From: Escherichia phage vb_EcoM-VR5
Length of the DNA: 64,000 nt
Sequence record: NC_028881.1
Strand: one strand, 5' to 3'
A model generated the notes under the pieces. The model worked only from the letters and a program-made list of their open reading frames with translations, ran no database searches and was not told the DNA's origin. The first letter of the stretch is position 1, and each line of letters opens with the position of its first letter. Below are positions 897-41,815 of the stretch, one piece after another. Made by a program: the position numbers and the translations under genes.

Positions 897-922
897 ATTA
901 TAACACACCTAAATTTAAAGCA
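897..922 (-). promoter_or_regulatory. MotA-box middle promoter-like element upstream of rnlB
   Basis: Minus strand reads TGCTTTA-(13 nt)-TATAAT, matching the T4 middle promoter architecture; core repeated at 28836. Confidence 0.45.
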
Positions 923-924
923 TA

Positions 925-1149
925 TTACTTTAGACAAAAAACGCGCTTAGCGCCGACCTTTTTATTAACCAAACGTTTACGATACACTACTTTTTCTCGT
1001 GCTTTAAATTTCTCTTTGGCATTTTCAACTTCAACCCAGGCCTTACCCATTTCTTTAGCAGTACCGCCTAAGAGCTTGGCTATTTCAATAAACGTCATAC
1101 CGGATTCATGTAAAAAATGTACTTTAACCTTATCCATAATGATTCCCAT
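925..1149 (-). CDS. hypothetical small basic protein, possible helix-turn-helix
   Basis: 74-aa ORF, Lys/Arg-rich; GMTFIEIAKLLGGTAKEMGKAW resembles an HTH; GTTTAC -35-like box upstream on minus strand. Confidence 0.45.
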   Translation of the reverse strand: MGIIMDKVKVHFLHESGMTFIEIAKLLGGTAKEMGKAWVEVENAKEKFKAREKVVYRKRLVNKKVGAKRVFCLK

Positions 1150-1287
1150 GTTGAGTTAGTGAAGCTATCTTAACATGGGATTTTTAACTTGTAAACAGGA
1201 GTTTTATGCCAGATATTCTTGAACGTAAAGATTTACTTTACATACCGCTAGTACCTTAATAAATATTAAATTAATAACGGGGGATTT

Positions 1288-2589
<1,302 letters not shown>

Positions 2590-2598
2590 GGACTACAA

Positions 2599-3417
2599 AT
2601 GGCTATTACATTAAGTCCATCTTCAATAGACGTAGAATACGGTGACTCTTATACAGTCACTGCTAATATTCCAGATATTAGCCCTGGTTCATCTATTGTG
2701 TATAACTGGACTAAGAATAAAAAATTTATTAGTTCCGGAACTAATGTATTCACTGAAATAGCATCATCGGTAGAAACATTCAGTATTGCGTGCCGAATTG
2801 AAATTATATCACCTGATAAAAACACTGAATATATTTTATCGGATTCTTGCTTGGTTAATGTTAGTAAAAACATAAAAGCGGACGGTATAAATTCTCAGCT
2901 AGTTTATTCACCGGATGTTCATAAAATAGGTGACCAAGTTATTCTTTCTGTAGAATCCCACCATGTAGACCCTGGCTATATTAAAGGAGTTATTTGGAAA
3001 GATCCATCGGGTAATGTCGTGTCAATTGGTAAAGAATATACGCATAAGATTAAGACGACAGAAGATGTTGTAGATGTAAAAATAGATTTGGCTTCTGAAA
3101 ATTATGCATATTACAATAAAACACTTCAAATTGTTCTTAAAGCTATTGAAGAAGATAATTCGGAGTGTAGTGTAAGATATATTCATCCTTTAGACCACAG
3201 GGATTCAGGATACATCTGGATGGGTTGGTGGGTTATGGACGAAATTGAAAGGGCTACGGTAGAAGGATTAAATTGGAAAGCGCCGGACGGTACTGACCTG
3301 AAGTATAAGTGCGACTTGAAAACTCTTTCTATAATGCTTGACTTATATAATAATGTTGAAGTACAAGAATCAAGGAATGGTTATATTCTAAACAGGGCAG
3401 ATTTACTTCCAAAATAA
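2599..3417 (+). CDS. Hoc-like protein: Ig-like N-terminal region plus Hoc-type C-terminal capsid-binding domain
   Basis: 272 aa; C-terminus YIHPLDHRDSGYIWMGWWVMDEIE...VEVQESRNGYIL aligns with Hoc C-terminus (YVHPLPVRSTAYIWCGWWVMDAIQ...VDVQESRNGRIV) encoded at 3442-4545. Confidence 0.75.
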   Translation: MAITLSPSSIDVEYGDSYTVTANIPDISPGSSIVYNWTKNKKFISSGTNVFTEIASSVETFSIACRIEIISPDKNTEYILSDSCLVNVSKNIKADGINSQLVYSPDVHKIGDQVILSVESHHVDPGYIKGVIWKDPSGNVVSIGKEYTHKIKTTEDVVDVKIDLASENYAYYNKTLQIVLKAIEEDNSECSVRYIHPLDHRDSGYIWMGWWVMDEIERATVEGLNWKAPDGTDLKYKCDLKTLSIMLDLYNNVEVQESRNGYILNRADLLPK

Positions 3418-3420
3418 AAA

Positions 3421-3434
3421 GGGCCGCAAGGCCC
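3421..3434. terminator. GC hairpin between convergent genes, likely bidirectional terminator
   Basis: gggcc-gcaa-ggccc flanked by A-run upstream and T-run downstream. Confidence 0.6.
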
Positions 3435-3441
3435 TTTATCA

Positions 3442-4545
3442 TTAATAGACGTAATCGTATATAATACCAGCTTCCAATGCCGAACGGTGGACGATACGAC
3501 CGTTACGAGATTCCTGTACATCAACTTCCGGGTAATCACTAAGCATTTTGGCTAATACCGCCAGATGACAATAATATGGTGTATTCTCTTTAGTGGCTTT
3601 TTTCCAATCTGTACTTTCAGATGTTAATTTCTGAATGGCGTCCATAACCCACCAACCACACCAAATATACGCAGTACTACGAACAGGAAGTGGATGTACA
3701 TAAATTAAAGGACATTCTTCTGGAACAACAGGCTCTGCTTCTGCCACCGTAACAGACTTATTACCTGATTTAACTGAATTTGTAAAGCCTGTTTGCGATG
3801 CTGTAACTTCACAAGTATATGACTTCAAGCCTTCAGTGGATTCCGTTATTGCTCTTGTTGCTTCTGTTGAGTTGTCGTCCCATTTATATGCAAGAGTAGC
3901 GCCAGGAATAGCAGGGGACACAGAAGCTGTCAAATTGAATGGAACATCAACCGTCGCAGTAGACGGGCCTGAAATCTCAACAGTGAACTCAGGAAATGTA
4001 TTGTTTTCGACCGTAACAACTACTGCATCAGGATTAATAACTTGATTGTCATAATCTGCCGCAGAAACGGTAATTTGGCAAGTTAAAGAAACCGGTCCTG
4101 CAACAGTAGCGGTACGAGTAATATCTTTAGTAGTTTCACCAGTAGACCACAAATATGCTATTGTAGCTCCACCTGGTTCACCTGTTACATTAGCCGAAGC
4201 GTTATATTCCTGACCAACTTTAACAGTAGGAGTGGAAGTTGTTAATGTTGCAGTTGCAGCCATAGTCTTATTATTAACCGTGATGGTTGTTTGAGCCTCT
4301 GCCGTTTCAGGCTCTCCTTCTTCCGGCGTTGTGGTGGCAACAACTTTAATTACTTTTGAACCTGCTGGCCCAGCTGCAATATAATCCATAGTAGCAATAA
4401 CAGAATCTTGTGGAACATCATCAACGGTCCATACAAAAGATTCGGTACCAGCGACAGCGGCTCCAGCTCCAGTGGCAGTAAAATTAGTTGTTGCACCTAT
4501 AACCGCTGTAGGTGTTAAAGGGGCAATTGATACAGTATAAGCCAT
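3442..4545 (-). CDS. hoc: Hoc, highly immunogenic outer capsid protein
   Basis: 367 aa; N-terminal Ig-like repeats and C-terminal ...HPLPVRSTAYIWCGWWVMD...YPEVDVQESRNG closely match T4 Hoc. Confidence 0.9.
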   Translation of the reverse strand: MAYTVSIAPLTPTAVIGATTNFTATGAGAAVAGTESFVWTVDDVPQDSVIATMDYIAAGPAGSKVIKVVATTTPEEGEPETAEAQTTITVNNKTMAATATLTTSTPTVKVGQEYNASANVTGEPGGATIAYLWSTGETTKDITRTATVAGPVSLTCQITVSAADYDNQVINPDAVVVTVENNTFPEFTVEISGPSTATVDVPFNLTASVSPAIPGATLAYKWDDNSTEATRAITESTEGLKSYTCEVTASQTGFTNSVKSGNKSVTVAEAEPVVPEECPLIYVHPLPVRSTAYIWCGWWVMDAIQKLTSESTDWKKATKENTPYYCHLAVLAKMLSDYPEVDVQESRNGRIVHRSALEAGIIYDYVY

Positions 4546-4571
4546 AAAATCTCCAAAAGGCCCTAGTGGCC

Positions 4572-5255
4572 TTAGTTTAAACGAATAAAAGATGAGTTAC
4601 GTGTTTCACGAATAAGAATGGAACCGTCACGATTGATATAGTAAATCAAACTAAACAATGTTTGGTGTGCGCTTGCATGAGTAAAAGAAGTAGGGCGTTC
4701 TTTCCAGTCCGGGGTCTCTTTAATCCACTGGTAAATCCACCAAGGAAGAGTACAATAACCTGGGGCTTTGCCCAGCATAAGCAGATTAGGACTAAAATTT
4801 TCAGGTAATTTAAATTTAGGGTTTTCAGATTCAACAATCTTAGATACCGCTTCTTCGAACTTCTCTTCAACAAAAGGAGTTTCAACAACAGCTATTTCAA
4901 CTGTTTCTGGGATATCTTTGATTTCAATAACTTCAACAGGTTCGGCAGGGGCCGTCGGAGCGTCAAATAATAATTTAGCTTCAATTTTAGATTCTTCAAC
5001 ATTTGCCAGGTGAGCATTAGTGCCCTGAAGCTCATCGTCGGCATCGATTAAATCAGTAATAGATAAACCTTCAGTTTCAGGTATAGGTTCATCTGCTATA
5101 GCCTTAAGGGCTTCAGCGATGTCTATTACCAAGTTGTCAAAACTTTTAGTTTTCTTAAGTTTTAAACCGAACTGTTCGCCGTATTCGATTAACTTAGCTT
5201 TAGCTTCTTTTTTATCTTCGAGTGAACGAAGCTCTTCAATATATTGAGTATCCAT
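4572..5255 (-). CDS. inh: Inh-like protein (inhibitor of prohead protease), by position and size
   Basis: 227-aa acidic ORF between hoc and uvsW as in T4 (Inh 226 aa); late promoter upstream; no motif-level confirmation. Confidence 0.5.
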   Translation of the reverse strand: MDTQYIEELRSLEDKKEAKAKLIEYGEQFGLKLKKTKSFDNLVIDIAEALKAIADEPIPETEGLSITDLIDADDELQGTNAHLANVEESKIEAKLLFDAPTAPAEPVEVIEIKDIPETVEIAVVETPFVEEKFEEAVSKIVESENPKFKLPENFSPNLLMLGKAPGYCTLPWWIYQWIKETPDWKERPTSFTHASAHQTLFSLIYYINRDGSILIRETRNSSFIRLN

Positions 5256-5274
5256 AATTAGTCTCTTGTTGGTG

Positions 5275-5282
5275 TATAAATA
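5275..5282 (+). promoter_or_regulatory. late promoter TATAAATA upstream of uvsW
   Basis: Exact TATAAATA 29 nt upstream of uvsW ATG. Confidence 0.6.
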
Positions 5283-5288
5283 TAACTA

Positions 5289-5296
5289 TATTTATA
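5289..5296 (-). promoter_or_regulatory. late promoter (TATAAATA on minus strand) upstream of inh
   Basis: TATTTATA on plus strand 34 nt upstream of the inh start; divergent from the uvsW promoter. Confidence 0.5.
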
Positions 5297-5310
5297 ACTG
5301 AGAATTAGAC

Positions 5311-6807
5311 ATGCAAATTCAAGTACATTTTGATAATTTTAGTCATGTTCGTATTGAGTGTGATGAATCCACATTCTACGAACTTAGAGACTATTTCAGT
5401 TTTGAAGCTGATGGATACAAATTTAACCCTAAATATCGTTATGGTCAATGGGACGGGAGAATTCGTCTTCTAGATTATAACCGTAAACTTCCATACGGTT
5501 TAGTCCCACAAATTAAAAAATTCGCTGACCAGTTTGAATACTCTCTTTGGATAGACCCTCGTATTCTTGAACAAGAAGATATTTCTCGTGAAGATTTTGA
5601 CTCATGGGTGGCTTCCCAGGAAATTTATTCGGGTTCTACCAAGATTGAGCCTCATTGGTATCAGAGTGAAGCAGTATACAACGGCCTGACAAAACGTCGT
5701 GCAATTCTGAATTTACCTACATCTGCAGGTAAATCATTGATTCAGGCGCTCCTGAGTCGATATTACGTTGAGAACTATGAAGGTAAAATTTTAATCCTTG
5801 TCCCAACTACTGCACTCGTCGACCAGATGATTAATGACTTCATCGATTATCGCTTGTTCCCTAAATCTGCTATGCTTGGTATTCGTTCAGGTACTGCACG
5901 TGATTCAGATGCAATGATTTATGTTTCAACTTATCAGACTGCTATTAAACAACCTAAAGAATGGTTTGCCCAGTTTGGTATGTTTATGAACGATGAATGT
6001 CATTTGGCTACAGGTAAATCAATTTCTACTATTATCGAAGGCCTTACCAATTGTATGTTTAAATTTGGTTTGTCTGGTTCTTTAAAAGATGGTAAAGCTA
6101 ACCTTATGCAATACATGGGTTTGTTTGGTGATATTTTTAAACCCGTTTCCACCTCCCAATTAATGGAAGAAGGACAGGTCACTGATTTAAAAATAAACAG
6201 TATTTTCCTTCGTTACCCTGATGAATTCACCATTAAGATGAAAGGTAAAGATTACCAATCAGAAATTAAAGTCATTACTAAGGCTACTCGTCGTAATAAA
6301 TGGGTTGCTAATTTAGCTGTTAAACTCGCTAAGAAAGAAGAGAATGTATTCTTGATGTTTAAAAACATCGAGCATGGTAAAACTCTTTTTGAAATGGTTA
6401 AAGAGCAACATAAAGAAGTTTATTACGTATCAGGCGAAGTTAATACAGAAACTCGTAATGCTCTTAAGTTAATGGCTGAAAATGGTAAGGGTATTATTGT
6501 TGTGGCAAGTTATGGTGTATTTTCTACAGGTATTTCTGTTAAGAATCTCCATCACGTAATATTTGCCCATCCTGTAAAATCTAAAATTATTGTGCTGCAA
6601 ACCATCGGTCGTGTACTTCGTAAACATGCATCCAAGACCACCGCACAGGTTTGGGATATTATAGACGACATGGGCGTTAAGCCTAAATCAGCAAATGCCA
6701 AAAAGAAGTATGTTCATTTGAATTATGCATTAAAACATGCCTTAGAACGTATTCAACGTTATGCTGACGAAAAATTTAATTACGTAATGAAACAGGTGGA
6801 TTTATGA
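5311..6807 (+). CDS. uvsW: UvsW RNA-DNA/DNA-DNA helicase
   Basis: 498 aa; near-identical stretches to T4 UvsW (HWYQ..., LPTSAGKS, MNDECHLATGKSIS, VASYGVFSTGISVKNLHHV). Confidence 0.95.
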   Translation: MQIQVHFDNFSHVRIECDESTFYELRDYFSFEADGYKFNPKYRYGQWDGRIRLLDYNRKLPYGLVPQIKKFADQFEYSLWIDPRILEQEDISREDFDSWVASQEIYSGSTKIEPHWYQSEAVYNGLTKRRAILNLPTSAGKSLIQALLSRYYVENYEGKILILVPTTALVDQMINDFIDYRLFPKSAMLGIRSGTARDSDAMIYVSTYQTAIKQPKEWFAQFGMFMNDECHLATGKSISTIIEGLTNCMFKFGLSGSLKDGKANLMQYMGLFGDIFKPVSTSQLMEEGQVTDLKINSIFLRYPDEFTIKMKGKDYQSEIKVITKATRRNKWVANLAVKLAKKEENVFLMFKNIEHGKTLFEMVKEQHKEVYYVSGEVNTETRNALKLMAENGKGIIVVASYGVFSTGISVKNLHHVIFAHPVKSKIIVLQTIGRVLRKHASKTTAQVWDIIDDMGVKPKSANAKKKYVHLNYALKHALERIQRYADEKFNYVMKQVDL

Positions 6808-9158: not shown

Positions 9159-9170
9159 TTATTTATAAAT
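9159..9170. promoter_or_regulatory. overlapping divergent late promoters (TATTTATAAATA)
   Basis: Contains TATAAATA on plus strand (for gene 51) and its reverse complement (for gene 26) in the 26/51 divergent intergenic region. Confidence 0.55.
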
Positions 9171-9191
9171 ACATCAATAAGAGGATACCTT

Positions 9192-29277: not shown

Positions 29278-30477
<1,200 letters not shown>

Positions 30478-30481
<4 letters not shown>

Positions 30482-30996
30482 ACACCAAGCTCCTTATAAA
30501 GTTCTTCGCGACAGGTTTTAAGGATTTTACCAGTTTCATAAGCTGTGCTTTCAGAAACATCACCAAGTGCAGCGGCAGCTTGCATTTGGCCGTGGCGTTT
30601 AGCTGCGTATTCAAAACTTTTTACTAGCTCACGAATACGTTCTTTTTCATTGTACTCTTCAATGAATTCAGGGTATTCCCAAACCGGGCGCATCATACGA
30701 TACCACTGTTGGATGGTAATATAATTACTTCCATTCAAATTAATAATCTGTGAAGGCTCAATAGACCCTGGAGCATAAAAAGTTACCTGTCTTACTACAT
30801 CAATACCGTCTACAATAGCCCAAGCAAAATCGAAAGTTGCCTTCTTTTCAATCGGCGTGCTTGCACAGGACCCTAGTTTAAGGAGCTTTTGTAATACAGG
30901 AGATTTAATACTTGAAATGTATTCAGGCTTAGCCACAAAACTGTTATCACGTAATGTCATAATAATTTCCTCAATTTTTATAATCCGTAGGAGCAT
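30478..30996 (-). CDS. hypothetical protein (start uncertain: M1 or M13)
   Basis: 172-aa ORF; alternative ATG 12 codons downstream. Confidence 0.5.
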
Positions 30997-31127
30997 TATA
31001 CTCTGCTCCCAAGAGTTTGTAAACTACTTTCCAAAAAGACCGTGCATACACATGCTGAACACAATTCCGAAACAAAAGAATGCGGCGCCAAATCTAACAG
31101 CATCCCAACCACAAACACATGTCTCGA

Positions 31128-31418
31128 TCATTTACACCTCTCCTCTTTTAACCCAGAACGATAATAACATAACATAGATTTCTGGTCTTGTACATATCTT
31201 TTTACATCGTTTAACCAAATGCGATGTTCTTGGGAGTCTTCGAATGGCATTCCAACCCAAGCCTTACCATCGATTACCTTGACCTGCCATTTAACCGAAT
31301 GTTTGGTAATAGATTGTGGCCATGAAGGGTGTAGTTGTTGCTTAGGCGCCACAGGAATATCCTGAGCACACCCGACTAATAAGCCAATAGATAACATTAC
31401 TGCAGACAATTTAATCAT
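31128..31418 (-). CDS. outer-membrane spanin lipoprotein (o-spanin)
   Basis: 96 aa; signal peptide ending in lipobox LVGC; immediately downstream of the i-spanin, as the T4 pseT.2/pseT.3 pair. Confidence 0.7.
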   Translation of the reverse strand: MIKLSAVMLSIGLLVGCAQDIPVAPKQQLHPSWPQSITKHSVKWQVKVIDGKAWVGMPFEDSQEHRIWLNDVKRYVQDQKSMLCYYRSGLKEERCK

Positions 31419-31768
31419 TCTGTGATGCTCCTGAAGTCTTTGGCAAAGGAATCGAAGGAGTTGTTGATTTGTTTTTCGACCAATCCTGGCTTACTTGCCA
31501 CCACGTGCGCCTTCTTCGAATCTTTACGGAGCTTTTCATTTTCTACCTTAATTTTATCCATTCGGGCGTTCATTTCAGTAGTACGGAATTCAATATCAGC
31601 GTATTGGCCATGAAGGTCTTCTAAAGCTTCAGCGTTCTGTTTAGCTGTTTGCTGGGTTGTTTTCAGTTCTTCAGTTAGGGTATCAATACGGCTTGATTGA
31701 TACGAAATAAGACCGTAAGCACCTACTACAATGGCTCCGGCTAAAAGGTAAATACTTAATTTAGACAT
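31415..31768 (-). CDS. inner-membrane spanin (i-spanin)
   Basis: 117 aa; N-terminal TM segment (IYLLAGAIVVGAYGLI) followed by a charged coiled-coil-like region. Confidence 0.7.
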   Translation of the reverse strand: MSKLSIYLLAGAIVVGAYGLISYQSSRIDTLTEELKTTQQTAKQNAEALEDLHGQYADIEFRTTEMNARMDKIKVENEKLRKDSKKAHVVASKPGLVEKQINNSFDSFAKDFRSITE

Positions 31769-32256
31769 TTTGTAATAATCTCGATGATGTCATCACGTGA
31801 CAGGGAATTAATAAGAACCGTTTTAGGATTTTCACACTGAATTTTGTATGTTTCAAACATCACACACAATTCTTCAGAGGTATGGTAAGGACTTGAAATA
31901 CCGAGGCGATTAGTTTTATCACCCAGTGGGTCGCAAATCAAATAGAAAGTGATGCCATCGATTTTAACATTAGGTTGACTGATATTAATGAACACGTTGG
32001 CATCATATTTGGAAAGGTTGTTCTGAAGGAATTCGACCATAGCATTAACAGCTTCCGGCATGGCTTCACGTTTCTCTTCAGTATAACGAGTAGAATATTC
32101 TTTTTGTTTAATTTTCTTTTTAGCATTACGAGCCATCGTAACACGAAGGTCGGTGAGGTAACCAACTGCACGAGAACCTTTAAAAACTTGGATACCGTCA
32201 GTTGAGTCACCATAAGCCTTAACAATCATTTCGTTAGTGATAAGTTGCATGTTCAT
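31756..32256 (-). CDS. alc: Alc-like transcription termination factor, by position and size
   Basis: ORF trimmed to ATG at 32254-32256 (MNMQLITNEM...), placed 7 nt after GAGGAG and downstream of the promoter; 166 aa vs T4 Alc 167 aa. Confidence 0.6.
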   Translation of the reverse strand: MNMQLITNEMIVKAYGDSTDGIQVFKGSRAVGYLTDLRVTMARNAKKKIKQKEYSTRYTEEKREAMPEAVNAMVEFLQNNLSKYDANVFINISQPNVKIDGITFYLICDPLGDKTNRLGISSPYHTSEELCVMFETYKIQCENPKTVLINSLSRDDIIEIITKCLN

Positions 32257-32284
32257 AATGTTCTCCTCATGTTTGTGTAAGGTC

Positions 32285-32313
32285 ATACTATCACATCATG
32301 AGGAGATGTAAAC
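32285..32313 (-). promoter_or_regulatory. early promoter / PeSL-like cassette
   Basis: Minus strand GTTTAC-(17 nt)-TAGTAT with inverted repeat cctcatg...catgagg; same leader as 15687-15744. Confidence 0.55.
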
Positions 32314-33461
32314 TACTCTACCACAATTTCTTTCAAATATTTTTCAGGGATTTGAGCCTTATGATTTTTCAAGAACACAGAGTTAATCTGGTCCATGACT
32401 GTATCATAATTAATACCGCCTACGTACGCCTGCATAAGAATAGAGAACAAACCTGGGAAGTCTTTGAGGATTAACTGTCCGGTAACAGCATAGTCCTTAC
32501 GGTCGCGTCCCTTGAGTTGAGAATAAGCCGCTTCTAACAAGGCTAAAGATTGTTCTAAGTAGTCTAAATGGATACGTTCAAACGCATTGATTTTCTCGAT
32601 GGCAAATGAATCCGTACTGAACAACCCTCGGAGGTCATCAGTTCCACCAGCCACTACAACTTCAAACAAACGTTCGTTATTGTTAATGGAATCCTTAGTA
32701 TGATGCAGTGCACTATACCAAGCAGTTTTGAGTTTAAAGAACGTGCCATCTTTAAGCACAAAGATAAAGCCTTCAATACCCTCTTGTTTACGGATATCGC
32801 CAACAAAATCGCCTTCAGAGAGTTTGTAGCTTTTAACCAAATGCTTACGCAGAGCACCATCTTTAAACAGTTCAGCGTAAGGGATATACTCGCCTGTTTC
32901 GTTATTACGGACGTTCAGTAAGATAAGGTTTGTTTCTTGGTAAGCCAGCACAATACGGTTAGTAGGAGCGACGTACTCAAGGTTGCATGTATATCCTGCT
33001 TTAGTAATTTCTTCTAAACGGGCCGCGAAGGCTTCGTTTTCAGGGAGACGAAGGAAACGTAAAGAATCATACACCATCGACGAATGGATGGAGCCTTTAG
33101 ATTTAACAGAAAGATACTGCCGGTCCATGAAGGTAGAAATCAAGGAACCATCTTCCTTAGCCATAACCAAGTCAATATTTTCTGGCGATAAATCCAGACC
33201 AATGGTCATAGGGTTTTCATCGAGATTAAAGAACTTTTGCATAGGACGAGCCGCAATACGTACAGGACCTTGTTCGTCCATTTCAAACATGATGCCTCTG
33301 CATTCCAGGGCATCGTCCTCCAACCAATCAGAGTATGAGGCATAGTTATAACTAAAGATGCGATAATTGACTCCTAGCGCACTCTGGAAGTCTTTAAAGA
33401 AGAACTTAGATTTAGTTGAGTTTTTAACCAAAGTCATCAAGTTATTATATAATTCAATCAT
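32313..33461 (-). CDS. rnlA: RNA ligase 1
   Basis: 382 aa; matches T4 Rnl1 (YRIFSYNYASYSDWL, ALECRGIMFEMD, KFFNL.ENP, VAPTNRIVLAYQE..IILLNVR.NETGEYI). Confidence 0.9.
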   Translation of the reverse strand: MIELYNNLMTLVKNSTKSKFFFKDFQSALGVNYRIFSYNYASYSDWLEDDALECRGIMFEMDEQGPVRIAARPMQKFFNLDENPMTIGLDLSPENIDLVMAKEDGSLISTFMDRQYLSVKSKGSIHSSMVYDSLRFLRLPENEAFAARLEEITKAGYTCNLEYVAPTNRIVLAYQETNLILLNVRNNETGEYIPYAELFKDGALRKHLVKSYKLSEGDFVGDIRKQEGIEGFIFVLKDGTFFKLKTAWYSALHHTKDSINNNERLFEVVVAGGTDDLRGLFSTDSFAIEKINAFERIHLDYLEQSLALLEAAYSQLKGRDRKDYAVTGQLILKDFPGLFSILMQAYVGGINYDTVMDQINSVFLKNHKAQIPEKYLKEIVVE

Positions 33462-33871
33462 TGCTTTATCCTATGTTGGGTATTCCAAGGTGGATTAAAT
33501 TTCTTTATGAACATTGGCTCTTCAAGAGACATGGTCTCAACTGACATAGTTCCAAGTTCGTTAGTCATTGACAGATTAAAGCACTGCCGTGCATAGAACT
33601 CTACCTTTTTACCCGCCATTAATGCTTCATGAATCAGAATGGACTTAGTCGAATCCGACGTTTGGTCCTTACGATTAATAGCCGTACGATAGTAGTTAAT
33701 ACGCTTACGAAGATTTTTAGTCTTCCCGATGTAGACTAGTATATCATCAACAGCTATAGCATATATGACATTTTGTTTATTTGGAACCGTGATAGGGGCT
33801 ATAGTAGCATCTGTTTGGAGCTCTAGTGTAACGTACTTGATAAAGCTAAATTCATCTGCGATTTCTTTCAT
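33458..33871 (-). CDS. denA: endonuclease II (GIY-YIG family)
   Basis: ORF trimmed to ATG at 33869-33871 (MKEIADEFSFIKY...), 137 aa; near-identical to T4 EndoII incl. NVIYAIA..D.LVYIGKTKNLRKRINYYRTAINRKD. Confidence 0.9.
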   Translation of the reverse strand: MKEIADEFSFIKYVTLELQTDATIAPITVPNKQNVIYAIAVDDILVYIGKTKNLRKRINYYRTAINRKDQTSDSTKSILIHEALMAGKKVEFYARQCFNLSMTNELGTMSVETMSLEEPMFIKKFNPPWNTQHRIKQ

Positions 33872-33879
33872 AGCAATAA

Positions 33880-33893
33880 GGGGCCGAAGCCCC
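33880..33893 (-). terminator. GC tetraloop hairpin between nrdB and denA
   Basis: ggggc-cgaa-gcccc. Confidence 0.45.
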
Positions 33894-33898
33894 ATTCC

Positions 33899-35107
33899 TT
33901 AAAAATATTTCTTGTATGATGCCATTACTTTTTCATCGACATCATTATCAATTTGTGCTACTAAGTAAGAACTGATTTCCACTTCCTGAGGAGCTGCCTG
34001 TACTGCATCAGAGTTCAGATATTCACGAATCCAAGGGTAAGGATGTCGAGTAGGGGCATCAGTAATTGGACACGGTAATCCACACTGCTTCATACGCGAA
34101 ACAGTCAAGTAATCGACAAAAGCACCCATGTTCTGGGTATTTAATCCTGGGCAGGTACCATCTTTGAATAGGTGAGCGGCCCATTCTTTTTCTTGTCGGT
34201 TAACTTCCATGAAAATATCAACTGCTTCTTGTTCAAGCTCTTGAGCAATTTTAACCCATTCATCACCGTCGGTACCAAGTTGGAGTTGACGAATAATGTA
34301 TTGGGTACCCTTAAGGTGAAGCTGTTCATCACGTGCGATGAACTTCATAATCTTGGCATTACCTTCCATGATTTCCATATTCTTGTGGAAGTTAAAGGTG
34401 CATGCGAAAGATACGTAAAAACGAATAGCTTCCAATGCATTGATTACGTGGAGGCAGAGATAAAGAGATTTCATCAATGCTCGTTTAGCAATAGCTTCTT
34501 GTTTGATAGCTCGTTCCAAACGTTGGTCCGCTTCGGGAGTTTCTTTAGCTAGTTCAATAAAAGCAATTTGGTTTTGCCATTGACGTGTTTTCTCAAGAAC
34601 ATCATCATAATAACGACCGATAGATTCGGCGCGTTTCATAATTGCATCATCTAACAGAATTTCATCAAATACCTTAGATGGGTCTGTATAGAGGTTACGC
34701 ATGATATGGGTATACGAACGAGAGTGGATAGTTTCACTAAAGGTCCATGTAGCAACCCATGTATCAAGGCTGGGGTCTGAAATCAATGCTTGGAGTGCAG
34801 CAGACGGTGCACGACCCTGAATACTATCCAGAAGCGATTGGTACTTCAGGTTATTAGTAAAAATATTTTGCTGGAATTGCGGAAGCTTATTAAACTGAGC
34901 GGCATCCATCATCAAGTTAACTTCTTCTGGGCGCCAGAAAAAACTCAACTGCTTTTCACAAAGCTCTTCGAATACTTTATGACGCTGGATATCGTAACGA
35001 GCAATACCCAATCCTGAACCAAAGAACATCGGTTCGACTAAAACATCAACTGGGGTGGTATTAAAAACTGTAGACATATTATTCTCATTTGTTAGTGACT
35101 CATCCAT
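33899..35107 (-). CDS. nrdB: ribonucleotide reductase small subunit
   Basis: 402-aa uninterrupted ORF in the T4 nrdB position (T4 NrdB about 388 aa); no intron-sized interruption. Confidence 0.85.
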   Translation of the reverse strand: MDESLTNENNMSTVFNTTPVDVLVEPMFFGSGLGIARYDIQRHKVFEELCEKQLSFFWRPEEVNLMMDAAQFNKLPQFQQNIFTNNLKYQSLLDSIQGRAPSAALQALISDPSLDTWVATWTFSETIHSRSYTHIMRNLYTDPSKVFDEILLDDAIMKRAESIGRYYDDVLEKTRQWQNQIAFIELAKETPEADQRLERAIKQEAIAKRALMKSLYLCLHVINALEAIRFYVSFACTFNFHKNMEIMEGNAKIMKFIARDEQLHLKGTQYIIRQLQLGTDGDEWVKIAQELEQEAVDIFMEVNRQEKEWAAHLFKDGTCPGLNTQNMGAFVDYLTVSRMKQCGLPCPITDAPTRHPYPWIREYLNSDAVQAAPQEVEISSYLVAQIDNDVDEKVMASYKKYF

Positions 35108-35130
35108 GAGTCAATTATAATCAGATTTTC

Positions 35131-37386
35131 TTAAAGCTTACATGCTGCGCAATCATCGGCTTTAGGAGTTTCGATTTCGTAATCGTCAGTACCAGAGCCA
35201 TCACGGGTATTATGATAATAGAGGTTTTTTCCGCCATAATACCAGAAGTACATCAAGTCGTCAAGCATTACCGACATAGGAACTTTTCCTTTTGGAAAAA
35301 TCTGTGGGTCGTAATATGTATTAGCTGACGCAGATTGGCATACCCATTTCAACATAATCGCTACCTGAGTCAGATAAGGTTTATTACCTTTCTTAACCAG
35401 GGTCCAAGCGTAATCATACAATCCTTGGTTATGTTCTACATTAGGAACTACCTGACGGAAGTTACCTTCTTTAGATTCTTTAATACTTACTGGGCCACGC
35501 GGAGGTTCGATACCGTTGGTAGAGTTTGAAACCTGGCTGCTTGACTCACATGGCATGAGTGCTGATAATGTGCTATTACGGATGCCATGTGCAGATAAGT
35601 CTTCCCGCAACTGCGACCAGTCACAAACGTATTTTGGAGCTGCGATTTGGTCAATCTTTTTATTGTACCAGTCGATAGGAAGCTCGCCTCGAGACCATTT
35701 AGTGTCTGAATAATACTCGCAAGGTCCTTTTTCTTTGGCGAGCTTGATTGATGCTCGGATAAGGCCATACTGTAATCTCTCAAATAATTCATGGGTTAAA
35801 TCATTAGCATCTTCATAAGAAGCAAAGTTGCTTGCCAACCAAGCGGCATAGTTCGTAACACCGACACCCAGGTTACGGCGCTTCTTAGCCTTCAGAGCTT
35901 CAGGAACAGGATAGCTTTGATAATCTAATAGGTTATCCAGTGCTCGCACTTGTACTTCAGCGAGTTCGTTAATCTTGTCTTGGTCTTGCCAATCAAAGTT
36001 ATCCAATACGAATGCAGACAGAGTACATAACCCGATTTCAGCTTCAGGGCTATTTACGTCATTAGTCGGGATTGCAATTTCACAACACAAGTTGCTCTGA
36101 CGAATAGGAGCACGTTCACGAATAAATGGGGTGAAGTTGTTAGTGTTATCTACGAACTGAGGATAAATTCGAGCTGTTCCTGAACGTTCAGTCATGAACA
36201 ATTCGAAGAGGTCACGTGCTTTAATACGTTTCTTACGAATACTAGGGTCTTTTTCAGCCGCTTCATACAATTCGCGGAAACGGTCTTGGTCTTCAAAATA
36301 AGAATAATAAAGCTCACCGCTCATTTCATGAGGACTGAATAACGTGATGTAATCATTTTTACCGAAACGTTCCATCATAAGGTCGTTCAACTGGATTCCG
36401 TAGTCCATATGACGAATACGGTTCTCATCAACGCCTTTGTTGTTTTTCAGAACGAGCAGATTTTCAACTTCCAAATGCCAAATAGGATAATAAGCAGTAG
36501 CAGCGCCGCCACGGATTCCACCTTGTGAACATGATTTAACTGCAGTCTGGAAATGCTTCCAGAATGGAATAACACCGGTATGTTTGACTTCACCCATACC
36601 AATACGAGAACCTTCAGCACGAATCATACCAACGTTGATACCAATACCTGCACGTTTAGAAATATACTCGATTATTGAGTTAGCAGTTTTATTAATTGAT
36701 TTCAGCGAGTCACCTGCTTCAATAACAACGCAAGAACTAAACTGACGGGTCGGGGTACGAGCACCAGCCATAATAGGAGTAGGCAATGAAATCTGACGGG
36801 TGCTAACAGCATCATAAAAACGAATAATATGTGCTAAACGATTACCCGGTTCTTCTTGGTGAAGAGCCATACCAATACACATGATAGAGAATTGAGGGGT
36901 TTCGTAGATTTTACCTGTAGTCTTATCTTTAACCAAGTATTTCTCTTTCAGCTGCATCGCACCAGCGTAGGTCAATTCGAAATCACGCTCATGCTTAATA
37001 TGCGATTCTAAAAAAGTAATCTCTTCTGCAGAATATCGAGACAACAATTCAGGGTCATATTTGCCTTCGTTAACGCAATAGGAAATATGGTCAATAAAAC
37101 TACGAGGTTCAAACTGACCGTAAACTTCTTTACGCAGGGCAAACATCAATTCCTTTGCAGCTACATACTGGTAATCAGGTTCTTCAACCGAAATAAGGTT
37201 GGCTGCAACTTTTACAGTAAGATTCTGGATATCTTTGGTGGTCATACCATCACGAAGATGTGGTTTAATTTCTTCGTATAATTCGTAGGGATCGATTTGG
37301 GTTCCTTCACATCCCCAAGTCAAAACTTTAATAATTTTTTGTGAGTCAAAATCTTGGGATACACCACTACTCTTTTGTACTTGCAT
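35131..37386 (-). CDS. nrdA: ribonucleotide reductase large subunit
   Basis: 751 aa (T4 NrdA 754 aa); class I RNR large-subunit size and position upstream of nrdB. Confidence 0.9.
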   Translation of the reverse strand: MQVQKSSGVSQDFDSQKIIKVLTWGCEGTQIDPYELYEEIKPHLRDGMTTKDIQNLTVKVAANLISVEEPDYQYVAAKELMFALRKEVYGQFEPRSFIDHISYCVNEGKYDPELLSRYSAEEITFLESHIKHERDFELTYAGAMQLKEKYLVKDKTTGKIYETPQFSIMCIGMALHQEEPGNRLAHIIRFYDAVSTRQISLPTPIMAGARTPTRQFSSCVVIEAGDSLKSINKTANSIIEYISKRAGIGINVGMIRAEGSRIGMGEVKHTGVIPFWKHFQTAVKSCSQGGIRGGAATAYYPIWHLEVENLLVLKNNKGVDENRIRHMDYGIQLNDLMMERFGKNDYITLFSPHEMSGELYYSYFEDQDRFRELYEAAEKDPSIRKKRIKARDLFELFMTERSGTARIYPQFVDNTNNFTPFIRERAPIRQSNLCCEIAIPTNDVNSPEAEIGLCTLSAFVLDNFDWQDQDKINELAEVQVRALDNLLDYQSYPVPEALKAKKRRNLGVGVTNYAAWLASNFASYEDANDLTHELFERLQYGLIRASIKLAKEKGPCEYYSDTKWSRGELPIDWYNKKIDQIAAPKYVCDWSQLREDLSAHGIRNSTLSALMPCESSSQVSNSTNGIEPPRGPVSIKESKEGNFRQVVPNVEHNQGLYDYAWTLVKKGNKPYLTQVAIMLKWVCQSASANTYYDPQIFPKGKVPMSVMLDDLMYFWYYGGKNLYYHNTRDGSGTDDYEIETPKADDCAACKL

Positions 37387-37416
37387 AATTTCCTCAATAT
37401 GTTAGGTTCTACATCT

Positions 37417-37441
37417 ATAATAACATAGAACCTGTTAAGCA
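37417..37441 (-). promoter_or_regulatory. MotA-box middle promoter-like element upstream of nrdA
   Basis: Minus strand TGCTTAA-(12 nt)-TATTAT overlapping inverted repeat ggttctac...tagaacc. Confidence 0.45.
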
Positions 37442-37514
37442 TGGACTGATATTTATAGAATGAAATTCAGCCCAATCATAATAATCAAAAATAAGGTACC
37501 TATGATTTGAATTT

Positions 37515-39290
<1,776 letters not shown>

Positions 39291-39291
<1 letters not shown>

Positions 39292-39482
39292 TATAATTTC
39301 CTCAAATATTTTTTAACCATGTAATATTGAAATTCAAACATTCTGGAATCAATTACCCAAATCTGACGTTCAGGACACTCATTCAAACGCACCGCAGAAC
39401 ACCCAAAAGAAAGGAACGAATACTGTTTCTTTTCTGTTTCGGAAAGGCCCGTTCTTAAAAAGCGGAAAAATAAATCATGCAT
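39291..39482 (-). CDS. hypothetical protein
   Basis: ORF 39291-39614 trimmed to internal ATG (MHDLFFRF...) giving an ATGCATGA start/stop overlap with the upstream gene; 63 aa. Confidence 0.4.
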
Positions 39483-39723
39483 TTTTATTTGCCTTAACGA
39501 TTTTCCAATCAGCTTTGAACTGGTCGACATCCGAGTGATAAATCCAGAATCCGGATGATATACCGTCTTCGTAAAGAGGGCAACCGTCACATTCATCTTT
39601 CCAACCCATATCACACAAAGCTTGTTCAGCTTTTTCTAGAGCTTCCGGGTTGTTACCTTGGATTGTGAAGTACCATTTGCCTTTAACTTCAGAATCGTTG
39701 ATTGATTCACGTTGTAATTTCAT
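39475..39723 (-). CDS. hypothetical protein
   Basis: 82-aa ORF directly downstream of a promoter cassette. Confidence 0.5.
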   Translation of the reverse strand: MKLQRESINDSEVKGKWYFTIQGNNPEALEKAEQALCDMGWKDECDGCPLYEDGISSGFWIYHSDVDQFKADWKIVKANKNA

Positions 39724-39749
39724 TTTATTCTCCTCAAGTTGATAAGGCT

Positions 39750-39779
39750 ATAGTATCACTACCATAGCCTGGTGTAAAC
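39750..39779 (-). promoter_or_regulatory. early promoter / PeSL-like cassette
   Basis: Minus strand GTTTAC-(18 nt)-TACTAT; variant core ggctatagtatc. Confidence 0.5.
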
Positions 39780-39781
39780 AT

Positions 39782-40009
39782 TTATTTTTGAATTAAGCCC
39801 ATATAAAATTCAGCATCTTCAGCATGCATACCATCACAATACTCGTCAGCCATAAAACGAGTCAGGTCTTCAAGAGGGCCTTGGATTTCAATTTGGATAC
39901 TAAAGAATTGAGTATCTTTGATGTAAGCCATACTCAAAGAAGGATAACGATTACGGATAACTTCGTAAGTGTATTCAAAATCAACGATATCAATATTAAC
40001 ATTAGCCAT
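39782..40009 (-). CDS. hypothetical protein
   Basis: 75-aa acidic ORF flanked on both sides by promoter cassettes. Confidence 0.5.
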
Positions 40010-40038
40010 TTTATTTTCCTCATGTAGTTGATAGGTCT

Positions 40039-40067
40039 ATAGTATCATGTTTAAAGATATTGTAAAC
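40039..40067 (-). promoter_or_regulatory. early promoter / PeSL-like cassette
   Basis: Minus strand GTTTAC-(17 nt)-TACTAT within gataggtctatagtatcatg core. Confidence 0.55.
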
Positions 40068-40071
40068 TACT

Positions 40072-40341
40072 TTATGAAATTTTATCGAGCCATTTACCAA
40101 GTTTAATCATTTCTTTGGTGGCCTTTTCCATACTTCTGAACTTAACTAATAAAGGATAAGTATCTACACCCATAACTAAAGTGGTTACAAGACTATGCTC
40201 ACCTACAAGCCATAGAGAATACGTTTGAATATCAAGTCCGTAATTTCGGTCTTTATGAACACGTACACCCATCACTTCAAACTGTTTACTGGCTTTTTCT
40301 ACTGCATCCAGGAAATCATCTTTAGTCATATTAAATTCCAA
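40072..40341 (-). CDS. hypothetical protein
   Basis: 89-aa ORF. Confidence 0.5.
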   Translation of the reverse strand: MEFNMTKDDFLDAVEKASKQFEVMGVRVHKDRNYGLDIQTYSLWLVGEHSLVTTLVMGVDTYPLLVKFRSMEKATKEMIKLGKWLDKIS

Positions 40342-40696
40342 AGGTAGCTTTAATCAGGGCAATGACTTCAGCCGCATTTTTATGATTTACCTGCACATGA
40401 ATGGTTTGCGTGTCAACAACAGGAGCATCTTCATCAACTTCCAGGAAGTGACGGAATTCACCTTCAGCGAGTTCAAAGTACTCATCAGCATCATCCATAC
40501 TATCCAGGATGGTGCCATCTTTCATTTCAACTTTTTCGACAAAATAATCGCCATCAATATAGCACATATCCAGGACTTTGAAGGAACTGCCATGCTGTTC
40601 CATCAGCTTGACCATGCGCGAATTATCATCTGGACAGTCGGCGATGAAACGTTTTTTAGCAGCAGGGTCTAATACGTAAGTTTTACCAGTTTCCAT
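40331..40696 (-). CDS. hypothetical acidic protein
   Basis: 121-aa ORF, Asp/Glu-rich. Confidence 0.5.
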   Translation of the reverse strand: METGKTYVLDPAAKKRFIADCPDDNSRMVKLMEQHGSSFKVLDMCYIDGDYFVEKVEMKDGTILDSMDDADEYFELAEGEFRHFLEVDEDAPVVDTQTIHVQVNHKNAAEVIALIKATFGI

Positions 40697-40724
40697 TTTT
40701 ATTTCCTCATGTTTTGATAGGTCT

Positions 40725-40753
40725 ATAGTATCATGTTCCTAGAGGGTGTAAAC
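40725..40753 (-). promoter_or_regulatory. early promoter / PeSL-like cassette
   Basis: Minus strand GTTTAC-(17 nt)-TACTAT within gataggtctatagtatcatg core. Confidence 0.55.
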
Positions 40754-40805
40754 CATTAAATGCCAAAAAGGGAAGACCGAAGTCTTCCCATTATAAATCA
40801 ATAAC

Positions 40806-41717
40806 TTATAGACCAGCTAACAGGTCGTCCAGACCATCGTCATCAGAAGGACTTACTGACGGCTCAGGAGTAGTGGAACGAGCTGGGGTAGACGGTTTAG
40901 AATCATATGCATCAAGGTCTGCACTGAATGCGTCTAGGTCATCACCGATCTTATCAGCGGCAGCAGAAGCTTTAGCGGCAGCACCACCAAGAGCAGCTGT
41001 ACCAACAACTTTCTTAAACTTGGCTTCATTAGTTTCAAAGGATTTGAATTCGAGCAGTTTAGAAAGGTCGTGCATTTCTTCCATCAATTTAGCTTGGTAA
41101 GCTTCGTCATTGATGTTAGGAATTTCGGACTGGTTCATGAACTTGGAATCATCATAGTTCTTGAAGTCGCCAACTTTCTTAGATTTCAGTACGAAGTTCG
41201 CGCCATCAAACGGACAGGTAACATCAATTGGCGTTTCACCAATATCAGTGTCAACTTCAACCATCTGGTTGATTTTATCCATGATTTTCTGACCGAAACG
41301 GAATTTAAACACTTTACCTTCGTTAGCAGGCACTGCACTATCCTTAATAACAAGGATGTTAGCCCAGAAGGAAGTTTTACGTTTCATCAGTTTGTATTCA
41401 GCGTTATTAGTATTAAAGCTGTCGTTCTGGTTCATGTATTTACATACAGGACATGAATCGAAATCACCGTGAGTAGACGTACATGATTCAATATACCATT
41501 GACCATTTTTCTTAAAGCCATGATTAACAAGCTTAACAAATGGTGATGGATTAGCTTCGTCTTTCGAAGGAAGGAATCTAATAACTGCGGTCCCTACGCC
41601 ATTGTCGTCTTTCAATTTCCACTCTGATTTATCGTCGGAAGAGAAAGAACTACCGCCTTTAAGGGCATTAAGCTGAGCGGCAAGTTGAGAAGGATCGCGA
41701 CGTTTAAACATAGACAT
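40806..41717 (-). CDS. 32: single-stranded DNA-binding protein gp32
   Basis: 303 aa; matches T4 gp32 ([33 protein letters not shown] zinc site, TSYWANILV, VTCP..GANFVLK, acidic DLDDLL tail). Confidence 0.95.
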
Positions 41718-41815
41718 ATTATTTACCTTATTTGATATATTTAATTATTAACAGTTGGTGTTATCACATTTACCTTGATAACTAGGTTTTGTTGATGAAG
41801 TAATTATATACTACT
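41718..41815 (-). promoter_or_regulatory. gene 32 5' leader; candidate autoregulatory translational operator
   Basis: A/U-rich unstructured tract (ttaataattaaatatatcaaataaggtaaataat) directly 5' of the ATG, as in the T4 gene 32 operator. Confidence 0.4.

Follow-up and report, generated by a model that had tools for sequence, protein, structure and literature searches.

A probable second, shorter Hoc protein encoded by an exchangeable cassette facing hoc in Escherichia phage vb_EcoM-VR5

Hoc fibres mediate the adherence of phages to mucus and cell surfaces, and Hoc is the main antigen-display platform of T4. In Escherichia phage vb_EcoM-VR5, the canonical hoc gene is faced by a convergent ORF whose product also resembles Hoc, which raises the question of whether this phage makes a second Hoc protein and whether such a protein would occupy the same positions on the capsid. 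We analysed a stretch of 64,000 nucleotides of this phage (NC_028881.1; hereafter the window), in which an initial annotation, made by reading the letters, had reported the two convergent ORFs. Both were found exactly where it had placed them, with 24 nt between their stop codons (Table 1). Their products are called short Hoc and long Hoc below. Homology, fold, contact residues, purifying selection, cassette mosaicism and translation signals were computed, and they make it likely that the shorter ORF is a genuine second Hoc, encoded by a cassette and docking on the capsid; from the same data we infer that it is expressed late and present in the virion.

Table 1 Features of the hoc region of Escherichia phage vb_EcoM-VR5, in coordinates of the window
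Feature	Coordinates	Strand	Evidence or remarks
17-codon upstream ORF	1206..1259	+	strong Shine-Dalgarno sequence (AGGAG)
AATAAATA, putative cassette promoter	1258..1265	+	matches the T4 late promoter TATAAATA at 7 of 8 positions; first ATG of the cassette 22 nt downstream
Collagen-like fibre gene, first gene of the accessory cassette	1288..2589	+	433 aa; Pfam Collagen E 4e-36; PHROG 5073 'tail fiber' E 1.5e-111
Shine-Dalgarno sequence AAGGA of short Hoc	2588..2592	+	6 nt before the ATG; read from the sequence
Short Hoc ORF	2599..3417	+	272 aa
Short Hoc, N-terminal display part	2599..3156	+	two Ig-like beta-sandwich domains (aa 1-93 and 94-186)
Short Hoc, C-terminal capsid-binding domain and stop	3157..3417	+	aa 187-272; HPL..R, GWW, QESRNG loop
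Perfect hairpin between the two stop codons	3418..3437	both	AAAGGGCC-GCAA-GGCCCTTT
Canonical (long) hoc	3442..4545	-	367 aa
Canonical hoc, stop and C-terminal capsid-binding domain	3442..3723	-	aa 275-367
Canonical hoc, three Ig-like domains	3724..4545	-	aa 1-274
inh (prohead protease inhibitor)	4572..5255	-	upstream of hoc, same late transcription unit; PHROG 1051 E 5.5e-90
Exact T4-type late promoter TATAAATA	5289..5296	-	33 nt upstream of inh

Short Hoc and long Hoc are 29% identical over 258 aa (BLASTP, E 8e-32), and their last 95 aa are 48% identical (E 9e-29). Homology of the two C-termini had first been proposed from a shared motif. The alignment is significant over the whole domain and so extends beyond this motif, which is present in both proteins, although the residues quoted as R.S. 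are RSTA in long Hoc. Both proteins matched PHROG 1149 'Hoc-like head decoration' (E 1.8e-57 for short Hoc and 2e-115 for long Hoc). Long Hoc is 45.6% identical to T4 Hoc over the full length (E 1e-86), and a phmmer search matched short Hoc to T4 Hoc in the PDB (5vf3_Z; E 3.9e-29), the best stretch being residues 163-268 against 262-366. The N-terminal regions had been described as different, which holds for the number and the sequence of their domains; they nevertheless belong to the same Ig-like family and are homologous (22% identity, E 6e-6).

The AlphaFold2 model of short Hoc (pLDDT 85.9) shows two beta-sandwiches, with strands spanning residues 4-89 and 98-183, followed by an alpha/beta C-terminal domain (C-domain). 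The Pfam Ig_2 match in the N-terminal part was weak, and the best Foldseek matches of this part were tandem-Ig receptors (E 1e-8). The two Ig domains align with Ig domains 2-3 of long Hoc and of T4 Hoc. The modelled C-domain matches the structure of gp23*-bound T4 Hoc (8t1x_X; Foldseek TM 0.74, rmsd 2.0 Å, 52% identity). Short Hoc lacks the last ~8 residues (the E.G.IY tail) found in most Hocs, and S16-like and dhabil-type accessory Hocs end in the same way.

In T4 Hoc, the residues reported to contact the capsid or to stabilise a loop are Y293, H295, H299, R300, Y304, W306, W309, W310, D313, Q354, the ESRNG segment and Y360 (PMC10385173). Identical residues are found at 16 of the 16 positions in short Hoc and at 14 of the 16 in long Hoc. 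The two C-domains are thus distinguished by two of the contact positions (H299/V and Y360/R) and also by the C-terminal tail. ESRNG forms a loop between the last two beta-strands, where mutations in T4 affect capsid binding (PMC10385173); QESRNGY occurs at aa 256-262 of short Hoc and also in long Hoc. On the capsid side, the docking loop of gp23 (residues 326-344) is identical between VR7 and T4 at 18 of 19 positions, with D336 and R344 kept (the gp23 gene of vb_EcoM-VR5 is not within the window). That both proteins are built for docking on the same capsid site, as the initial annotation had suggested, is therefore well supported by the contact residues and the C-domain model. Its further suggestion that the two might share these sites is unlikely, since a single Hoc C-domain at the centre of the hexamer touches every one of the six gp23 subunits (PMC10385173), which should make occupancy mutually exclusive. 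Short Hoc probably competes with long Hoc for the same sites. Its C-domain would dock at the centres of gp23* hexamers after capsid expansion, as that of T4 Hoc does, and each of the ~155 hexamers would hold either a three-Ig Hoc or a two-Ig Hoc, never both. The capsid would then carry, as a mosaic, two kinds of fibre that differ in length and in Ig surface, their proportions depending on expression and affinity, and a wider adhesion range of the head might follow, for example towards mucin glycans or cell surfaces. A literature search found no case in which mass spectrometry or cryo-EM had addressed two Hocs in the same particle.

The two genes belong to different Hoc lineages. Their C-domains fall in different clades, that of long Hoc lying with T4 in the canonical clade (bootstrap 99). 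The C-domain of short Hoc is 61-73% identical to those of the sole Hocs of Serratia 92A1, Proteus, Morganella and Winklervirus phages and 48% identical to that of its own neighbour. A local tandem duplication was therefore rejected as the origin of short Hoc, which is closer to Hocs of other genera. These sole Hocs share with short Hoc the motif RYIHPLDHR...KYKCDL...NVEVQESRNGYILN. They differ from it in that they follow inh, without a collagen-like partner and with no second Hoc in the loci examined. Since so similar a type serves as the only Hoc, in the canonical position, the short Hoc type of C-domain evidently works as a Hoc elsewhere. Long Hoc also has the canonical position, directly downstream of inh on the same strand. 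Short Hoc does not, and instead lies on the strand opposite to inh and hoc, within the cassette. The canonical position is a typical feature of the Hoc family, not a functional requirement.

The lineage also bears on whether short Hoc might be confined to some of the capsomers, for instance the vertex-proximal or cap hexamers or those influenced by a gp24 paralogue, with no global competition with long Hoc. The differences between the C-domains at H299/V, Y360/R and the tail would fit such a division of sites. T4 Hoc is described as behaving differently on vertex-proximal hexamers (PMC10385173), and there are two gp24 genes in phages of this group. However, JS98 has two gp24 genes and no cassette, which shows that gp24 duplication and the cassette are not linked, and we rejected that connection. 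In addition, the use of the same C-domain type as the only Hoc of other phages implies general hexamer binding, and there is one gp23 only, with one conserved docking loop. A restriction to some capsomers is therefore unlikely, and we retain competition over the hexamers as the preferred reading.

Short Hoc is encoded by the second of two genes, both read towards hoc, inserted between 24.3 and hoc. The first gene encodes a collagen-like protein whose N-terminus is conserved and whose C-terminal domain is a near-orphan; it contains two Gly-X-Y blocks. The C-terminal 139 aa of this protein had one match, to a fragment, among 5.8 billion proteins, and a single-sequence AlphaFold2 model of the domain was unusable (pLDDT 52.7). 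Orthologues of the collagen-like gene precede short Hoc in VR7, VR26, KIT01, dhabil, Kosakonia phage 305, contig L009 and an Aeromonas phage. The two genes have been exchanged together as one mosaic block, and the cassette is an accessory, horizontally exchanged two-gene unit.

This conserved partnership raises the alternative that short Hoc is the capsid anchor or partner of the collagen-like fibre. The cassette would then be a mobile head-fibre module, in which the C-domain tethers the fibre directly or via the Ig domains. The joint exchange of the two genes speaks for this, as does their order, which is kept with a spacing of 9-10 nt or a 4-nt overlap in Gaprivervirus, Dhakavirus, Kanagawavirus, a metagenomic contig and an Aeromonas T4-like phage. 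Moreover, in a 175.8-kb contig (L056) a fibre gene of the same type is followed by a near-bare Hoc C-domain of 122 aa without Ig domains, which does not easily fit a display protein. The first 25 residues of the fibre, however, stay identical while the paired Hoc alleles diverge to 41%, that is, the two do not co-vary. The N-terminus of the fibre is also found in tail-fibre or neck modules of Vequintavirinae, with no Hoc annotated in the surrounding 8.8 kb. Furthermore, rnlB and 24.3 lie between the two genes in IME08, and some accessory Hocs, such as that of Muldoon, are not accompanied by a collagen gene. We therefore regard an anchoring role as improbable. If it were true, some T4-like phages would carry a second, exchangeable head adhesin system in the form of a trimeric collagen-like fibre.

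A second Hoc acting in its own right would have to be made, and several observations suggest that it is. The dN/dS ratio of short Hoc was 0.076 between VR26 and KIT01 (dS 0.47) and 0.09 between the window and VR7, compared with ~0.12 for hoc. Across comparisons it ranged from 0.08 to 0.25, indicating purifying selection. The ORF was intact in every allele examined, though the alleles are only ~40% identical in amino acids. The AGGA core of its Shine-Dalgarno sequence is kept in VR7, VR26 and dhabil, and the overlap of this sequence with the stop codon of the collagen-like gene suggests translational coupling. A pseudogene or untranslated ORF was rejected on the basis of the dN/dS ratios, the intact ORFs in such divergent alleles and the Shine-Dalgarno sequence.

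The hairpin between the two stop codons is predicted to be a bidirectional intrinsic terminator shared by short Hoc and hoc. Its RNA folding energy is -14.4 kcal/mol on the plus strand and -15.6 kcal/mol on the minus strand, and none of 200 shuffles was equally stable. The U-tract is stronger on the hoc (minus) side and weak on the plus strand. The hairpin is kept in VR7, VR26 and dhabil and coincides with the right-hand mosaic boundary.

In the window, exact TATAAATA boxes precede inh, uvsW and some further genes by 18-33 nt. The count of all exact boxes in the window (8 observed against 7.2 expected) is uninformative by itself, and only positions relative to start codons were therefore used. 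The box upstream of inh likely drives transcription of inh and hoc, whose synteny is the same as in T4. Upstream of the cassette there is no exact TATAAATA, only the 7/8 match AATAAATA. This box is identical in VR7 and VR26 and is a putative promoter of the cassette. A scan of the region for sigma-70 promoters found 17, against 12.2 +/- 2.9 in shuffled sequences, which is not above expectation, and these were not used.

The promoter data leave some room for short Hoc being a silent or decaying hitch-hiker from which no virion protein is made. Hoc is dispensable in T4, so that retention of the gene is no proof of what short Hoc does. No proteomic, transcript or cryo-EM evidence for short Hoc was found in the literature searched, the VR7 genome paper lying outside it. 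Nevertheless, decay is at odds with the strong purifying selection, with an ORF that stays intact despite ~60% amino-acid divergence, with the retention of all contact residues and with the Shine-Dalgarno sequence and terminator. In addition, Kosakonia phage 305 has kept short Hoc while its canonical hoc has decayed to a remnant, the cassette Hoc being its only intact Hoc. A silent passenger is thus very unlikely, and expression of short Hoc as a virion protein is the reading that we favour.

The closest counterpart of short Hoc is VR7ORF197w/gp197 of phage VR7 (YP_004063878.1), which is 99.3% identical and has the same locus architecture. It is annotated as 'similar to bacteriophage T4 Hoc head outer capsid protein' in GenBank and as 'Hoc-like head decoration' in RefSeq. 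Like T4 Hoc, short Hoc is acidic (pI 4.9 vs 4.7), but it has two Ig domains rather than three and ~30% overall identity to T4 Hoc. Whereas T4 hoc follows inh, the short Hoc gene lies on the opposite strand in an inserted cassette, besides a canonical hoc. The Hocs of PNJ-9 (283 aa; PMC11853027) and JS98 (282 aa) have the same architecture of two Ig domains and a C-domain, though each is the only Hoc of its phage and lies in the canonical position after inh. In PNJ-9, such a sole two-Ig Hoc is experimentally functional: it binds MUC2 via Ig domain 2 and mediates mucus adherence (PMC11853027). A second, shorter Hoc (314 aa) is known from Serratia phage Muldoon, and two Hoc-like proteins from Enterobacter phage PG7 (Fokine et al. 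2023, PMC10385173). Like short Hoc, the Muldoon protein is the product of a second gene and accompanies a longer Hoc; it has fewer Ig-like domains (two) on the same capsid-binding domain. The Muldoon genes, however, are in tandem on one strand, and their C-domains are 70% identical and cluster together, pointing to a recent local duplication there. In vb_EcoM-VR5, in contrast, the genes are convergent, their C-domains come from different clades and share 48% identity, and the shorter gene travels with a collagen-like gene.

A search of a phage genome collection located 1515 Hoc C-domains in 1342 records, and 7 of 60 evenly sampled records had at least two. About 1 in 8 (~12%) of the Hoc-bearing phage genomes in this collection thus carry at least two Hoc C-domain genes. 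Since second Hoc genes are already annotated (VR7 gp197), published (Muldoon and PG7) and common, the presence of one here is well supported but ordinary, without novelty in itself. What is added is that short Hoc belongs to a different Hoc lineage, keeps every known capsid-contact residue and is encoded together with a collagen-like fibre gene in a cassette that recombines. The C-domain has already been proposed as a means of functionalising the capsid with other ligands (PMC10385173). Two Hocs loaded on ~155 sites could broaden or tune head adhesion and would offer a natural model for two-ligand display.

The Shine-Dalgarno sequence and first codons of the 17-codon upstream ORF align with the start of gene dhabil_240, and this ORF has probably been left over from the 5' end of a different, 'type B' (dhabil-like) allele of the cassette. 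In the dhabil-type allele, the intergenic region is short and contains no late-promoter box. The VR7 annotation makes the collagen-like gene that precedes gp197 shorter by 127 nt.

The two Hoc-like proteins of the window, the canonical 367-aa hoc product (long Hoc) and a 272-aa protein (short Hoc), are encoded by convergent genes in a T4-type head-gene neighbourhood. The collagen-like gene and the short Hoc gene together are referred to here as the cassette. The IMG/VR contig UViG_2706795356_000001 (170,473 bp) was 100% identical to the window over the 7.4 kb compared, and Escherichia phage vB_EcoM_VR7 showed 96-100% identity at the hoc locus. The best backbone match was ESCO10, filed under Dhakavirus (94.7%, for window 30,001-42,000 only). 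The hoc locus is thus VR7-like (Gaprivervirus), whereas the single 12-kb backbone stretch compared is ESCO10-like.

Features of the hoc region and nearby regulatory elements in the window
Feature	Position	Strand	Family assignment
24.3 (DUF2774)	925-1149	-	Pfam/PHROGs
17-codon upstream ORF	1206-1259	+	
Collagen-like gene, 433 aa	1288-2589	+	Pfam/PHROGs
Short Hoc ORF, 272 aa	2599-3417	+	Pfam/PHROGs
Hairpin	3418-3437		
hoc, 367 aa	3442-4545	-	Pfam/PHROGs
inh	4572-5255	-	Pfam/PHROGs
Late promoter boxes, inh/uvsW	5275-5296		
Late promoter for inh-hoc	5296-5289		
uvsW	5311-6807	+	Pfam/PHROGs
Second pair of late promoter boxes	9160-9171		

The two proteins aligned over 258 aa (E = 8e-32, 29% identity) and both matched PHROG 1149, "Hoc-like head decoration"; short Hoc also matched the solved T4 Hoc (E = 3.9e-29). 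Their C-terminal 95 residues were 48% identical (E = 9e-29), confirming the proposal of the initial annotation that the Hoc capsid-binding domain (C-domain) occurs twice in convergent genes. The N-terminal regions had been described as different. This holds in that short Hoc has only two Ig-like domains, which align to Ig domains 2-3 of long Hoc and T4 Hoc, but these parts are not unrelated, as homology between them is still detectable (22% identity, E = 6e-6).

An AlphaFold2 model of short Hoc (18-sequence alignment, mean pLDDT 85.9) showed a pair of beta-sandwich domains, with strands at 4-89 and 98-183, and then an alpha/beta domain at 203-269. In Foldseek searches against the PDB, the N-terminal part matched tandem-Ig receptors, and the C-terminal part matched 8t1x_X, the T4 Hoc C-domain in complex with the gp23* capsomer (TM 0.74, rmsd 2.0 Å, 52% identity). 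Fokine et al. 2023 (PMC10385173) name the T4 Hoc residues in contact with gp23* or supporting the binding loop: Y293, H295, H299, R300, Y304, W306, W309, W310, D313, Q354, E355-S-R-N-G359 and Y360. When aligned with MAFFT, short Hoc was identical at all 16 and long Hoc at 14 of 16. Short Hoc is acidic (pI 4.88; T4 Hoc, 4.74), and its C-terminus is about eight residues shorter than that of most Hocs ("...NRADLLPK" versus "...ALEAGIIYDYVY"), with similar endings in other accessory Hocs. The Hoc-docking loop of gp23 (residues 326-344) was compared in VR7, the gp23 gene of the source phage lying outside the window; 18 of 19 residues were identical to T4, including D336 and R344.

The fold and the retained residues argue strongly for binding competence, which partly supports the earlier suggestion that the two proteins could compete for or share the same capsid sites. 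In the middle of the hexamer, a single C-domain touches all six gp23* subunits (PMC10385173). Because of this geometry, the contact residues kept in both proteins and the single conserved docking loop, short and long Hoc would probably compete for the same ~155 sites, one per hexamer. The capsid would then bear mixed three-Ig and two-Ig fibres with differing surfaces; short Hoc would be present in virions and may have its own ligand specificity. We consider this the most likely mechanism, and confinement of short Hoc to a subset of capsomers improbable.

Strong purifying selection acts on the short Hoc gene. Its dN/dS was 0.076 (dN 0.036, dS 0.47) for VR26-KIT01, the informative pair, and 0.09 for window-VR7, compared with ~0.12 for long hoc. 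The ORF is intact even between alleles with 39-46% amino-acid identity, and a Shine-Dalgarno sequence (AAGGA) lies 6 nt 5' of its ATG, overlapping the stop codon of the collagen-like gene. That the ORF is silent thus seems very unlikely. Between the convergent genes lies a perfect hairpin (AAAGGGCC-GCAA-GGCCCTTT; dG -14.4 kcal/mol on the plus and -15.6 kcal/mol on the minus strand), which none of 200 shuffles matched in folding and which VR7, VR26 and dhabil have retained. On the plus strand its U-tract is weaker than toward hoc, where it is canonical. Upstream of inh-hoc lies an exact T4 late promoter, TATAAATA. The cassette has only AATAAATA, a 7/8 match located 22 nt 5' of the first ATG, a distance typical for late promoters in the window; late expression of the cassette is therefore plausible. 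The 55-nt inh/uvsW intergenic region holds two exact TATAAATA boxes back to back on opposite strands, one toward inh-hoc and the other toward uvsW, and the second divergent pair of boxes overlaps.

In a neighbour-joining tree of C-domains, T4 Hoc, long Hoc and both Hocs of phage Muldoon formed one clade (bootstrap 99), and short Hoc grouped elsewhere. Its C-domain shared 61-73% identity with the only Hoc found in each of the Serratia 92A1, Proteus, Morganella and Winklervirus phages, in which the short-Hoc-type gene occupies the canonical position after inh. Local duplication of hoc is ruled out, since the two C-domains fall in different groups and short Hoc is closer to Hocs of other phages. 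Judging from these comparisons, short Hoc came with a mobile cassette from a different Hoc lineage. Kosakonia phage 305 retains only a decayed canonical hoc on the minus strand (L005 4862-5196): past the terminator, the final 11 codons ("LEAGTIYSYVY*") and interrupted stretches of Ig-like sequence are left, none with the GWW/ESRNG core, and the cassette supplies the one intact Hoc of this phage.

In T4 and JS98, 24.3 is directly followed by hoc. The cassette is inserted between them in the window, VR7, VR25, VR26, ESCO10, KIT01, dhabil, Kosakonia phage 305, a 173-kb metagenomic contig and Aeromonas phage GomatiRiver_11 (genes overlapping by 4 nt). In a sliding comparison of the window with VR26, identity was ~95% up to about position 1400, 41-76% (mostly 44-64%) over 1400-3400, and 91-100% from the terminator through hoc. 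Therefore, exchange involved the cassette body as a single block, and the alleles of short Hoc reassort independently of those of long Hoc. The whole 900-5400 locus is strongly mosaic relative to loci L001 (VR7), L003, L004 and L007, inh alleles also reassorting: window inh is 98% identical to ESCO10 and ~71% to VR7, and window hoc 97-98% identical to VR7, VR26 and ESCO10. The 17-codon ORF has a strong Shine-Dalgarno sequence (AGGAG). This sequence and the first codons align to where the dhabil-type cassette gene begins, and the ORF looks like a scar of recombinational cassette replacement. IME08 carries a rearranged version (L016 3432-4619, 6133-6999), with the collagen-like gene between 24b and rnlB and short Hoc apart, after 24.3, still convergent with hoc. 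Tandem paralogues of the vertex protein gp24 were seen in four loci (L001 1-1582, L015 4205-6769, L016 646-3210, L062 2968-5531); a link to the cassette is ruled out, as JS98 and S16 have tandem gp24 without it.

The collagen-like "tail fiber" gene always lies directly 5' of short Hoc, the two genes being 9-10 nt apart or overlapping by 4 nt, in the window, L001-L005, L009 and L017, spanning Gaprivervirus, Dhakavirus, Kanagawavirus, a metagenomic contig and an Aeromonas T4-like phage. Short Hoc might be an anchor or partner of the collagen-like fibre, given how deeply the pair is conserved and one lineage whose partner is reduced to a bare 122-aa C-domain. However, the fibre N-terminus also occurs in Vequintavirinae tail modules without a nearby Hoc, fibre and Hoc do not co-vary, and the genes are apart in IME08, so we regard this role as doubtful, and a mobile head-fibre module joining the two proteins as equally so. 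The fibre N-terminus is of two types, A and B (MSDNPLYGHDGRG...), and the distal 139 aa of the fibre protein are near-orphan (one match in 5.8 billion proteins). In VR7, ORF196w is annotated to end 127 nt 5' of ORF197w (L001 4560-4745 versus window 2460-2600), and the ~100 nt directly 5' of ORF197w, all that were compared, match the 3' end of the window gene at every position, suggesting a frameshift, indel or sequencing error in the VR7 gene.

Short Hoc is already known at the annotation level: GenBank describes its 99.3% identical orthologue, VR7 gp197, as "similar to bacteriophage T4 Hoc", and RefSeq names it "Hoc-like head decoration". A second Hoc is also known in kind. Fokine et al. 2023 (PMC10385173) report two Hoc-like proteins in PG7 and, in Muldoon, a second, shorter Hoc of two Ig-like domains and a C-domain, and propose the C-domain as a means of equipping the capsid with other ligands. 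Short Hoc shares this Muldoon architecture. The sole Hoc of PNJ-9, naturally two-Ig, binds MUC2 and mediates mucus adherence (PMC11853027). Added here for short Hoc are the origin in a different lineage, the finding that no contact residue has been lost, the terminator hairpin shared with hoc, and the mosaic structure of the cassette that also holds the collagen-like gene. Multiple Hoc C-domain genes are common: 1515 C-domain places were found in 1342 phage records, and 7 of 60 evenly sampled records had at least two such genes, some genomes having three or more. Three C-domain proteins are encoded in the metagenomic contig L009 (5001-9462; 282, 960 and 185 aa) and in L037 (3944-8536; 279, 944 and 285 aa). 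On a 175.8-kb contig, the gene after a type-B fibre gene encodes 122 aa that make up a Hoc C-domain only (L056), and the canonical locus (L053) holds several further C-domain ORFs.
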